Below, piece by piece: positions 6,736 to 9,309 of a stretch of DNA of 64,000 nucleotides. A program made the position numbers and the translations under genes. The stretch's first letter is position 1, and each line of letters opens with the position of its first letter. The notes beneath the pieces were generated by a model. It did no database searches. It was not told the origin of the DNA and saw only the letters and a list, made by a program, of their open reading frames with translations. The stretch spans positions 32,001-96,000 of the IMG/VR virus record IMGVR_UViG_3300035633_000651, one strand, 5' to 3'. This DNA is from a virus.

Positions 6736-6762
6736 TTGACAACCACCCAACGTTGTCAGGAT
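6736..6762 (+). promoter_or_regulatory. Candidate promoter/operator for the tracr-effector unit
   Basis: TTGACA at 6736 within the inverted repeat TGACAAC-N8-GTTGTCA; -10 box imperfect; AT-rich upstream. Confidence 0.45.
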
Positions 6763-8770
6763 GATACTCGAAGTCGGGTGGGAACCCGGCGCGTGGAGCT
6801 GCTGCGTAGGCAGGGAGCGGAAGCGCAAGGTCTACGGACCGAAGCAGATGGATATGATTGAATGCGTTTCGAGTGCGGCTGACCCGGCGTCTGAGGACGG
6901 ACGCCGGGTCAGCTACCTACCTTGCACTGCCTGCGGCACGAAGCAGCACCCCAAGCGACTGCGTAACGACGTGTGCCAGCAGTGCCGGACCCGTACAGGA
7001 GGACAGGTCGTCCGGGCCTACCGATACCGACTGTATCCGACACCCGCACAAGCCGCGCAGCTCGCTCGGGCGGGCGAGATGTCACGCCAGCTCTGGAATT
7101 ACCTCGTGCGAGATGCGGTCGACGTCGCGCGCACGGAGTCGCGCGTGGCGCGCAAGCACTACGCCCGATGGCACGCACGTCACCCCGACGTGGAAAAGAT
7201 GCCGAAAAAGGTCAAGTCTTCGATCTCTGAGCGGGCGAAGAAGGTATGCATCCGTGTGCATGGGCACGACTGGCGGGAGCCTCTGCGGAACCTGCCGCCT
7301 ATGGGCGAGATCACCTCGGCGCTGAGGGCACAGCGTCCCTGGTGGGGGCTGCCTGGCAACATGTCCAACGCGGTGCTTCAAACTGCCCAAGACGCGGTCA
7401 AGAAGAGCCGCCCACCGCGCATGAAGCGTCGAGGTCGGTTCGGGGAGCTGACTCTGCCTGGTCCTACGAACGGTGCGAAGGACTTGGTGCTCGACGAGCG
7501 CGACCCGCGGACTGCCTGGCTCACGGTGCCGAACGCACACCTCAAACTCAAAAAAGGTAAGCGTGTAGAGGACCAGGCGGTCACTGGGAACGTGCGGGCG
7601 AAGCGGCATCGTCCGCGCGTAGAGGACCAGGCGGTCGCCGGGAACGTGCGAGTGCTGCTGCATCGTCCGCTACCGCCTGATATCATTCACGACGAGGGCA
7701 AGCCGGCGGTGCGTCGTGTGGCGTTGGTGCACGAGGCGGGGGCTTGGTACGTCAGCGTGACGTACGAGTATGTCGCGCCTGGACGCGATGTCGCGCCCGA
7801 CCGCGCGTTGATTTGCGGCGTCGACCGCAACATGGCCACTAATCTGTGCACCTTCAGCTGTCCCGTCGGGCCTGTCGTGTACCAGGACGGTACACAGCCG
7901 GAGTCGCTCAGCGCCCCCTGGACGGACCCCTATATGGTGCCGTACCTTGTCTACACCGCAGAAGAGCGGAAGGCGGCGGCGCGCCGTGACGCGCACGCTC
8001 GCCGCATCGCGCGTCTTGTTGCGCGCACGCACCTGGACAAGGCGGCACGCGCGAGCGCGATCAACACCCACAAGTGGGGCCGCCGGTCGCGCGGCGAAGA
8101 CGACCCCGGGCAGCCGAAGTCGAAGCGTTGGGCCGCATCCGACAAAGCTGCAACCAAAGCTGCCGACCGTGGCGCGCGCAACCGCAAAGAAGTTCGGCGC
8201 CTGGTGGCCGACCGGTTGACGTACCACTGCCGCATCGTAGTCTTCGAGGCGCTCGACGCGCGGCAAATGATGGCGCGGACTCCAGGTGCGGGCGCAGGCG
8301 GGCGTGGACGGAACCGGAAGCAGGCGACCCAAGGCTGGGGTGACCTGCGCCTGCAGACGGAGTCTTCTGCCCAATTGCGTGACACGTTGGTCATCGAGGT
8401 GCCGTCTGCTTACACGTCGCAGACGTGCGCTGAGTGCGGGCACCCCGACTCGGCGTCGCGGCAGGACCAAGCCACATACGTGTGCACCGCCTGCGGACAC
8501 ACCGACAACGCGGACCGCAACGCCGCTCGGAACATCGAGCACCGCGGAGCGGCACTGCTCTCTGCGCCTATCGAGCTGGTGCGCGCCGCGCAAAGCCCGA
8601 AGAAAACCAAGACGGGGGCGGCCAAGGACCTGCAGACGCTGCTGTACGCTTGCGAGCGGCTCAGTGCCGCCGAAAAGGCCGACCTCGCTCGCGCCCCAAA
8701 GTGGGCGCAATCCTGGGCACTTAGCTACTTGAAGCGCGTCGCAGCTGACCACAAGGCCCGCAGCAACTAG
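6761..8770 (+). CDS. CRISPR-associated TnpB-like / compact type V (Cas12-like) RuvC nuclease, about 600-670 aa; start uncertain (6761, 6848, 6854 or 6971)
   Basis: IS605-OrfB N-terminal motif RAYRYRLYPTPAQ...LWNY; RuvC-I GVDRN, RuvC-II VFEALD, zinc ribbon CAECG...CTACG, RuvC-III NADRNAARNI; array starts 57 nt after the stop. Confidence 0.9.
   Translation: MILEVGWEPGAWSCCVGRERKRKVYGPKQMDMIECVSSAADPASEDGRRVSYLPCTACGTKQHPKRLRNDVCQQCRTRTGGQVVRAYRYRLYPTPAQAAQLARAGEMSRQLWNYLVRDAVDVARTESRVARKHYARWHARHPDVEKMPKKVKSSISERAKKVCIRVHGHDWREPLRNLPPMGEITSALRAQRPWWGLPGNMSNAVLQTAQDAVKKSRPPRMKRRGRFGELTLPGPTNGAKDLVLDERDPRTAWLTVPNAHLKLKKGKRVEDQAVTGNVRAKRHRPRVEDQAVAGNVRVLLHRPLPPDIIHDEGKPAVRRVALVHEAGAWYVSVTYEYVAPGRDVAPDRALICGVDRNMATNLCTFSCPVGPVVYQDGTQPESLSAPWTDPYMVPYLVYTAEERKAAARRDAHARRIARLVARTHLDKAARASAINTHKWGRRSRGEDDPGQPKSKRWAASDKAATKAADRGARNRKEVRRLVADRLTYHCRIVVFEALDARQMMARTPGAGAGGRGRNRKQATQGWGDLRLQTESSAQLRDTLVIEVPSAYTSQTCAECGHPDSASRQDQATYVCTACGHTDNADRNAARNIEHRGAALLSAPIELVRAAQSPKKTKTGAAKDLQTLLYACERLSAAEKADLARAPKWAQSWALSYLKRVAADHKARSN
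6765..6914 (+). ncRNA. Putative tracrRNA (anti-repeat at 6845-6873); boundaries and strand are estimates
   Basis: CAGATGGATATGATTGAATGCGTTTCGAG matches the repeat reverse complement at 26/29; upstream GTCGGGT-GGGA-ACCCGGC and CGTAGG/TCTACG stems; perfect 14-bp inverted repeat at 6878-6913 downstream. Confidence 0.75.
7562..7669 (+). repeat. 54-bp (18-aa) in-frame tandem duplication inside the effector
   Basis: RVEDQAVTGNVRAKRHRP / RVEDQAVAGNVRVLLHRP. Confidence 0.9.
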
Positions 8771-8827
8771 GCCCGCGCGCAATCGAAGAAAAAAGACCCA
8801 TGACATCCAACACTTACACCCCCGCCT

Positions 8828-9309
8828 CCCGAAACGCACTCACTCATATCCATCTGTTGCCACATCGGAAGGATAGTACGGACAGCCTGCCCTCCGGGGC
8901 CGCCCGAAACGCACTCACTCATATCCATCTGTTGCCACAAACCGTCGCCAAAGAACTTCTTCATCCGGGGCGCGAAGACCCGAAACGCACTAACTCATGT
9001 CCATCTGTTGCCACCACCCTGCGAGCACCAGAGCCGCCCGGCGCGGGTCCGTCCCGAAACGCACTCGCTCATATCCATCTGTTGCCACAAGACAGCGCGG
9101 GCGACACGCTTTCACATACGACCCACCCCGAAACGCACTCACTCATATCCATCTGTTGCCACCCAATAGTGGAGCGCGCTCCACGTGAGGTCCTCGACCC
9201 CGAAACGCACTCACTCATGTCCATCTGTTGCCACCCCGTCCAGGCTAACGGAGCTGAGATGCTCCGAATCGCCCCCGAAACGCCCTCAGTCGGGTCTATC
9301 TGGAGCCAC
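8828..9309 (+). CRISPR. CRISPR array: 7 repeats of 36 nt (CCCGAAACGCACTCACTCATATCCATCTGTTGCCAC), 6 spacers of 36-40 nt
   Basis: Repeats start at 8828, 8903, 8979, 9053, 9127, 9199 and 9274 (degenerate); spacers 39, 40, 38, 38, 36, 39 nt; the degenerate right-hand repeat suggests + orientation with leader 8771-8827. Confidence 0.97.

Follow-up and report, generated by a model that had tools for sequence, protein, structure and literature searches.

A phage-borne TnpB-like nuclease gene with an adjoining CRISPR array and an anti-repeat over its likely start codon, probably a tracrRNA-dependent type V-like unit

A gene for a TnpB-like RuvC nuclease, a CRISPR array, and a sequence complementary to the array's repeat lie side by side in a 64,000-nucleotide stretch of viral DNA (the window), which corresponds to bases 32001-96000 of the 109,677-bp IMG/VR virus record IMGVR_UViG_3300035633_000651. 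All elements are on the same strand (Table 1, window positions). A promoter-like site and a structured leader are followed by the anti-repeat, which spans the likely start codon ATG 6848 and the first eight codons of the effector gene; a strong hairpin, the remainder of the gene, a short A-rich leader, and the array come after it. A sequence-only reading of the window had described a protein of ~600-670 amino acids with the N-terminal TnpB motif, the RuvC D-E-D triad, and a C4 zinc ribbon, together with a seven-repeat array 57 nt behind its stop codon and a 26/29 anti-repeat at its 5′ end. This anatomy is borne out in every part by translation and by direct inspection of the array and of the complementarity.

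Table 1. Features of the nuclease-array locus and its left edge (window positions)
Feature	Position	Strand	Basis or remark
ResIII-type helicase N-terminal fragment, 59 aa, Walker A	6530..6709	+	Pfam ResIII 29.9 bits, cut-off 22.5
Sigma-70-like promoter (candidate): TTGACA, 18 nt, GATGAT	6736..6765	+	10/12 consensus positions matched
Structured 5′ leader, candidate tracrRNA scaffold	6772..6844	+	Minimum free energy -35.4 kcal/mol, z = -3.5
Anti-repeat, complementary to repeat positions 1-29; in-frame ATGs 6848 and 6854 inside	6845..6873	+	26/29 pairing
Effector gene, TnpB-fold RuvC nuclease, 640 aa from ATG 6848 (likely start)	6848..8770	+	Open reading frame, Pfam, NCBIfam, AlphaFold2 model
17-bp hairpin, AGGA loop, within effector codons 10-23	6877..6914	+	-36.3 kcal/mol, z = -7.5
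Family-specific N-terminal zinc ribbon, C26, C29, C43, C46	6923..6985	+	CxxC...CxxC aligned with P0056 and P0005
In-frame 54-nt (18-aa) tandem duplication, copies 85% identical	7561..7668	+	Low-confidence WED-region loop
RuvC residues D326 (7823), E467 (8246), D556 (8513)	7823..8515	+	Direct translation and alignment
C4 TNB zinc ribbon between RuvC-II and RuvC-III	8426-8494	+	Four cysteines
C-terminal helical extension, residues 574-640	8567..8767	+	Conserved E-x-[LV]-S ... A-R-A block; outside TnpB-aligned range
A-rich leader, 57 nt, stop codon to first repeat	8771..8827	+	Sequence; no promoter-like match
CRISPR array, seven 36-nt repeats and six unique spacers (36-40 nt)	8828..9309	+	Last repeat degenerate

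The open reading frame (ORF) 6761-8770 is open for 669 amino acids and contains the TnpB N-terminal motif (RAYRYRLYPTPAQ), with R-A-Y-R-Y-R-L-Y-P-T common to the window protein and TnpB. Profile searches assign the protein to the TnpB superfamily through the Pfam domains Cas12f1-like_TNB (65.4 bits) and HTH_OrfB_IS605 (41.2 bits) and through NCBIfam guided_TnpB (122.8 bits, above the cut-off of 100); its PHROGs annotation is transposase. The D-E-D triad and the four TNB cysteines are invariant in an alignment of 103 sequences. RuvC residues are numbered here from ATG 6848; D326, E467, and D556 correspond to D355, E496, and D585 in the 669-residue form.

An AlphaFold2 model of the 640-residue form (mean predicted local distance difference test, pLDDT, 75; predicted template modeling score 0.72) resembles ISDra2 TnpB most closely (VIA-align, Z 19.1, 327/341 residues, root-mean-square deviation 3.3), the match covering model residues 53-572. 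Fanzor2 and ISFba1 TnpB follow, and then Cas12m, Cas12p, TranC, and Cas12f, at Z 13-17. Nothing in ISDra2 TnpB corresponds to residues 1-52 and 574-640, so that the model supports a TnpB core extended by additional segments at the N and C termini, as the sequence-only reading had it. The 18-residue duplication is present as a single copy in the relative P0003 (an alignment gap), and the pLDDT falls below 50 at residues 237-263.

The 5′ end of the locus is marked by RNA structure. The leader 6772-6844 is predicted to form three hairpins, 6773-6790 (GGGA loop), 6791-6826, and 6829-6840 (UACG loop); none of 200 shuffled sequences folds as well, and the minimum-free-energy structure makes up 42% of the ensemble. 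The stretch 6770-6925 as a whole is also structured (z = -5.4), and no Rfam family matches the leader at E <= 1. Directly behind the leader, the anti-repeat reaches 25/27 complementarity over 6845-6871. It is the sole such site in the 109,677-bp record, where ~8e-8 would be expected by chance, and the only strong repeat-complementary site across 6600-8827. Its duplex with the repeat is predicted at -42.7 kcal/mol, compared with -26.3 +/- 3.2 for shuffled repeats. A search for a second anti-repeat, or for a partner of the repeat's last 7 nt, gave nothing above background. The 17-bp hairpin that follows is a candidate terminator or attenuator lacking a U-tract, or else a processing or stabilizing element. 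In high-GC bacteria, terminators commonly lack a U-tract.

Upstream of the leader, the site at 6736-6765 is the only promoter-like match in 6300-9800 (shuffles average 0.3); it was called by its consensus match alone and would place the transcription start near 6772. The −10-like hexamer overlaps ATG 6761, for which reason ATG 6848 is the preferred and likely start of the protein; if the promoter is real, ATG 6761 lies outside the transcript. The first cysteine of the N-terminal zinc ribbon is encoded at 6923, and the ribbon is kept in the relatives P0005 and P0056, so translation must begin upstream of this position. The only in-frame canonical starts (ATG, GTG, TTG) within 6772-6923 are ATG 6848 and ATG 6854, both in the anti-repeat. 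The profile of GC content at third codon positions gave no decision on the start codon. The unusual point of the locus is thus that the anti-repeat lies over the first usable start codon. Ahead of the first zinc-ribbon cysteine the window protein has 25 residues, compared with six in P0005 and four in P0056, which suggests that an RNA function shapes this coding stretch. In the model, residues 1-14 are disordered (pLDDT below 50), and the rest of the hairpin-encoded stretch is of low confidence (block means ~53-70).

The array is downstream of the effector gene and co-oriented with it. Its repeats start every 72-76 nt, and six of the seven are 94-100% identical to the consensus, the degenerate one being the terminal repeat at the far end. 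No other such array is present in the record; the only other match of the crude repeat finder is a 3-copy run within a tRNA cluster. The repeat alone is unstructured (-0.1 kcal/mol), and the region that covers the gene's 3′ end, the A-rich leader, and the first repeat (8600-8863) has no significant structure either (z = +0.74 versus shuffles). Spacer 5 (9163-9198) contains a perfect 16-bp palindrome, its positions 7-22 matching their own reverse strand (blastn-short).

The record, which has a GC content of 64% and is ~66% complete (CheckV), clearly belongs to a large tailed phage. It encodes a baseplate J protein with 49% identity to its counterpart in Virus Rctr197k and weaker matches in large myoviruses of Gordonia, Rhodococcus, and Mycobacterium, a PTH2-like gene product with 47% identity to that of a Myxococcus phage Mx1 gene, and 32 tRNA genes clustered upstream of the window (G000:C1:16002-25756). 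Cas1, Cas2, Cas4, Y1 TnpA, and serine recombinases are absent from all of its 109.7 kb (no Y1_Tnp or Resolvase match), and the effector gene is the single TnpB-type gene. The earlier statement that cas1, cas2, cas4, and tnpA are missing from the window therefore extends to the whole record; insertion sequence ends, which it also included, were not explicitly searched for. Related phages were found in IMG/VR neither by an exact repeat scan nor by a baseplate-protein scan. The tRNA cluster serves 19 of the 20 amino acids, with tRNA-Trp missing, and is typical for large lytic phages.

Immediately ahead of the cassette, the ResIII-type helicase fragment ends at a stop codon. The rest of the helicase was found nowhere else in the record, and no phage homolog was found. 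Only the N terminus being left, the cassette appears to sit at an old rearrangement, and the fragment points to a past insertion or deletion at this site of which it forms the left edge.

Full-length relatives of the effector are rare. In a HMMER pass over 1.84 billion representative proteins, thousands match the RuvC/zinc-ribbon part, and three are related over the full length: P0003 (572 aa, 45% identity, E = 3e-74), P0056 (572 aa), and P0005 (529 aa). The analysis covered their proteins, whose source contigs measure 57 kb (P0003, JGI), 67 kb (P0056, Logan), and 10 kb (P0005, Logan); all four family members are metagenomic singletons. P0005, P0056, and the window protein each have the whole N-terminal CxxC...CxxC ribbon; the called start of P0003 leaves only its second half. 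The C-terminal helical block is common to all four, as is the intact D-E-D triad, and one zinc ligand is a histidine in P0003. Four sister proteins whose ends were read have no N-terminal zinc ribbon and differ in their C-terminal tails. A separate homolog search in three runs returned the window protein itself and, in two of them, one weak ordinary-TnpB match; it missed P0003, so its blanks mean little. The ESM Atlas yielded generic long TnpB clusters only. Scans of viral and metagenome contigs for P0003 or the family gave no relative locus, and genome contigs gave only ordinary array-less TnpBs (e.g., L011).

In a FastTree phylogeny of 124 sequences the four proteins form one clade (support 92), which is nested in a group of eight (support 98) within wider ordinary TnpBs of Actinomycetota and Bradyrhizobium. 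Another clade, apart from this one, is made up of 11 array-flanked genes that come from IMG/VR huge phages and from Latescibacterota. This fits an origin of the family apart from the sampled array-linked groups, in a quick tree on a similarity-chosen sample that does not place it against the named type V subtypes. The proposal of an independent TnpB-to-Cas12 intermediate is compatible with this position among array-less TnpBs and with the separation from the sampled array-linked genes. Of the wider TnpB group, none of the loci read has an array.

Other TnpB-like genes next to arrays were seen during these searches. Dozens of 50-210-kb virus contigs from IMG/VR (L106-L154, many from sample 3300045988) carry a TnpB/Cas12-like gene at ~8,500-10,800 of each locus with arrays of 3-5 repeats on one or both sides, and the ones entered in the tree group in a clade apart from the window family. 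In two Latescibacterota metagenome-assembled genomes (L065, 6701-8043; L081, 6640-11771), large arrays (23 and 85 repeat hits) begin some hundreds of bases behind a TnpB-like gene of 379 aa.

The effector combines features of a type V effector, namely a split RuvC domain with the D-E-D triad, a TnpB/Cas12 fold (Z 14-19), and an adjoining array, with the profile and fold of TnpB; the transposon context and the 3′ omega RNA or right-end element RNA (reRNA) with a single guide that belong to TnpB were not found. By curated models it falls within none of the characterized Cas12 subtypes represented, which agrees with the earlier expectation. NCBIfam scores remain far below their cut-offs for Cas12f2 (38.7 bits versus 450), Cas12e (28.3 versus 200), Cas12c (12.2 versus 250), Cas12d (10.2 versus 250), and C2c8 (V-U2; 25.6 versus 350). 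PADLOC matches to Cas12f (best 78 bits) and Cas12u4 (75 bits, full length) were rejected as subtype evidence. Ordinary TnpBs reach 143-170 bits on the same Cas12f model and up to 216 on another, and ordinary ~400-aa TnpBs reach 163-220 on Cas12u4; as these scores are two to three times higher, the matches mark the TnpB superfamily and not a subtype. The PADLOC Cas12u1 model does not match the window protein at E <= 0.01 and matches P0003 at 39.5 bits. A Cas12m chain in the PDB matches the C-terminal part only (E = 1.3e-8; fold Z 15-16), and RdCas12n aligns with the N-terminal half of the model only (Z 11.5). Cas12m (type V-M, V-U1) uses crRNA alone and often has a degraded RuvC site; the site of the window protein is intact, and its gene carries an anti-repeat. 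Nor was the protein equated with MvCas12m of myxophage MV-1 (610 aa; D305/E463/D555), since the catalytic spacing of MvCas12m fits neither the window protein nor P0003 nor P0056.

Taken with the unstructured repeat, the confinement of structured RNA to the 5′ end makes a type V system that depends on a trans-activating CRISPR RNA (tracrRNA) the best reading. A scaffold followed by a same-strand anti-repeat, together with a repeat lacking structure of its own, is by analogy the layout of such systems. The locus is thus probably a self-contained, adaptation-less type V-like CRISPR unit of a large tailed phage with a tracrRNA-dependent effector, whose function is inferred from these parts. One promoter (~6736-6765) would drive a transcript whose first 100-145 nt serve as the tracrRNA, composed of the three leader hairpins (6772-6844), the anti-repeat (6845-6873), and the 17-bp hairpin (6877-6914). 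This last hairpin may end a fraction of the transcripts, and read-through would give rise to the mRNA of the effector, perhaps reaching as far as the array. The array is possibly served by this transcript because its 57-nt leader holds no promoter-like site. The repeat of the CRISPR RNA (crRNA) precursor would pair with the anti-repeat, and processing of the duplex would release a repeat-plus-spacer guide. Guide and tracrRNA would then load the RuvC nuclease (D326/E467/D556), which would cut DNA matching the 36-40-nt spacers. The targets would most likely be rival phages, satellites, or host elements, and new spacers would presumably be acquired by host machinery.

Several points weigh against this interpretation. 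The promoter, the transcription start, and the ends of the tracrRNA are all inferred, and the Shine-Dalgarno sequence ahead of ATG 6848 is weak. The location of the anti-repeat and of the 17-bp hairpin within the 5′ coding region is unusual for a tracrRNA, and the two could have a regulatory role. The spacers also lack recognizable origins: no significant protospacer was found in 50,697 GenBank phages, 72,556 plasmids, and 2.2 Mb of fetched loci, and exact 22-mers of spacers 1, 2, 4, and 6 are absent from IMG/VR, where spacers 3 and 5 were not scanned. The searches covered these collections and the phage's own record; host genomes, for which high-GC Myxococcota or Actinomycetota are candidates, were not searched. 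The absence of spacer matches is common for such systems, and the authors of the MvCas12m study likewise found no targets (bioRxiv 10.64898/2026.09.14.751636).

Because the earliest usable start codon lies within the anti-repeat, the maturation of guides may be coupled to the translation of the effector, with feedback between guide supply and effector synthesis, although this idea is tentative. In a more specific and somewhat more doubtful form of it, the tracrRNA would be the 5′ end of the effector mRNA itself, so that each pairing with a repeat would mature a guide and at the same time remove or block the site of ribosome entry. The 17-bp hairpin would set the ratio of tracrRNA to mRNA, and the whole would be a device that matches nuclease to guides in a newly arisen type V lineage.

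The same overlap admits a different explanation, in which the effector uses crRNA alone and the anti-repeat is a cis-regulatory site where array transcripts repress or destabilize the effector mRNA, giving a feedback between guide and protein. The position of the anti-repeat in the mRNA, over ATG 6848 and ATG 6854, suits this explanation well. It is nevertheless unlikely, as the repeat forms no hairpin by itself and a well-defined three-hairpin scaffold stands directly 5′ of the anti-repeat, as in type V tracrRNAs. Type V effectors that work with crRNA only usually read a hairpin or pseudoknot in the repeat. Precedents for an effector without tracrRNA do exist among phages: Cas12r needs none (bioRxiv 10.64898/2026.04.20.719267), and none was recognized for MvCas12m (bioRxiv 10.64898/2026.09.14.751636). 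The cis-regulatory and tracrRNA roles of the anti-repeat are, moreover, not mutually exclusive. That the locus is a decaying relic, an immobilized TnpB/Cas12 cassette captured by the phage and out of use, is suggested by the truncated helicase at the left edge, the tandem duplication in the effector, the very stable hairpin early in the ORF, the lack of spacer matches, and a family made up of metagenomic singletons only. Against it stand an open frame of 640 codons with all catalytic and zinc ligands, six well-preserved repeats, an anti-repeat that keeps 26/29 pairing, and the fact that the duplication is in frame and in a surface loop; a relic is decidedly improbable.

Two further explanations concern the nature of the nuclease, and both are very improbable. 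An ordinary TnpB of the IS200/IS605 or IS607 type, having an omega RNA and placed next to repeats unrelated to it (for instance a captured host array or iterons), would account for the guided_TnpB profile, the PHROGs annotation, and the nearest structure. It would leave unexplained why the record's sole repeat-complementary site is in the effector's 5′ end. The single-copy gene, with neither TnpA nor a serine recombinase found in the record, the lack of omega-RNA-like structure at its 3′ end, and the regular spacing and unique spacers of the array also speak against it. The protein could instead be an RNA-guided DNA binder or transcription regulator that does not cut, like Cas12m or the domesticated TnpBs of the TldR type. 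Its structural similarity to Cas12m, the histidine ligand in P0003, and spacers without detectable foreign targets, which could be regulatory, would agree with such a role. In DNA-binding derivatives the RuvC site is usually degraded, though, and here the triad is intact throughout the family; nor does any spacer match the phage's own record at up to eight mismatches.

The preferred reading, a tracrRNA-dependent type V-like unit, has precedents at several points. On many occasions TnpB has given rise to type V effectors, and 40 uncharacterized array-linked branches (V-U6 to V-U45), most of them without adaptation genes, have been listed (PMC10691335). The same work calls a TnpB branch a Cas12 when its array association is conserved in relatives. 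Compared with TnpB of IS200/IS605 (the OMEGA system; ISDra2, PDB 8EXA/8H1J), the window protein shares the fold, the N-terminal motif, the split RuvC D-E-D triad, and the C4 ribbon between RuvC-II and RuvC-III. It exceeds TnpB by ~230 amino acids and has a zinc ribbon added at the N terminus and a helical tail at the C terminus, and its gene is single-copy in a record without tnpA and is followed by a multi-spacer array in place of the single guide after the right end. The scaffold of the TnpB guide RNA overlaps the gene's 3′ end (PMC10691335), whereas the structured RNA is here at the 5′ end.

Among the array-linked systems, Cas12r of Thermus Lalka phages is functional with crRNA alone, has 564 amino acids and 29-nt repeats, and is argued by its authors to have arisen from a branch of TnpB that had not been tied to arrays before (bioRxiv 10.64898/2026.04.20.719267). 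It resembles the present locus as a phage-encoded TnpB-like nuclease that has a short array with degenerate repeats behind it, with no adaptation genes in the phage. Here the repeats have 36 nt, a 29-nt anti-repeat and a scaffold are present, and the phage group is another; the two are set apart by description and not by sequence comparison. Cas12n (type V-N, formerly V-U4/C2c9; RdCas12n, PDB 9J09) is compact, TnpB-like, tracrRNA-dependent, and reportedly a probable monomer, and its tracrRNA region overlaps its own ORF, which its authors likened to TnpB (PMC12216341). In the window the overlap with the ORF is at the 5′ end, and descriptions of Cas12n mention no zinc ribbon at the N terminus.

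TranC, a transposon-CRISPR intermediate (LaTranC, PDB 9JFO/9JFQ; Jin et al., Cell 2025, cited after bioRxiv 10.64898/2026.09.14.751636 and PMC13565253), has an effector of TnpB size, an array, and a split guide. Its helper RNA is understood to derive from the omega RNA, which covers the 3′ end of the gene. An effector with an array and the predicted division into tracrRNA and crRNA are common to both, as is the fold (Z 13-15); sequence similarity is negligible (E = 0.077), and here the helper is upstream and the 3′ end unstructured. Cas12p, the “Cas12 hacker” (PDB 9JFS), is of phage origin, has 500-700 amino acids and a 37-nt repeat, depends on a tracrRNA, and is presented as an early TnpB-to-Cas12 intermediate that is defined by a thioredoxin-binding domain (bioRxiv 10.1101/2025.01.20.633832). 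Its structure resembles the effector model (Z 15.9), and its sequence matches only in the C-terminal RuvC/zinc-ribbon part (E = 7e-4). MvCas12m places a Cas12m in a myxophage (bioRxiv 10.64898/2026.09.14.751636). Phage-borne, adaptation-less, TnpB-derived type V systems are thus already published with Cas12r, Cas12p, MvCas12m, the V-U branches, and TranC. What looks new is a four-member clade that has its own N- and C-terminal modules, along with a helper RNA over the gene start.

If active, the system would be a further independent case of a transposon nuclease turned into a CRISPR effector inside a virus, and its compact 640-residue effector, from a TnpB branch of four known members, would be a candidate scaffold for genome editing. 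A helper RNA that is upstream and overlaps the gene start, and is not a remnant of a 3′ omega RNA, bears on how guide RNAs were split in the transition from TnpB to Cas12; routes other than the “RNA splitting” proposed for TranC may exist. In addition, the overlap of anti-repeat and start codon is a case in which coupling of translation to the maturation of guides can be put to the test.

Further observations concern neighboring genes of the phage. A tRNA-like gene with an 8-nt anticodon loop is located at 6408-6482, ahead of the helicase fragment (ARAGORN anticodon “taag”; Rfam tRNA 57.7 bits). More tRNA-like pieces precede it (window 6300-6482), with a weak match to the Y RNA-like Rfam family YrlA at 6331-6431 (22.7 bits, E = 0.13). 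A Ro60 ortholog is encoded by this phage as well, at 35075-36709 (TROVE 143 bits, Ro60 vWA 191 bits), and the two regions could together make a Ro60/Y-RNA module carried by the phage. In the window at 12530-15539, a PARG catalytic domain of the microbial type (12530-13144, 51.6 bits) overlaps the end of a protein of 819 aa with DUF7178 and DUF3293, and this region may serve as an ADP-ribosylation counter-defense.

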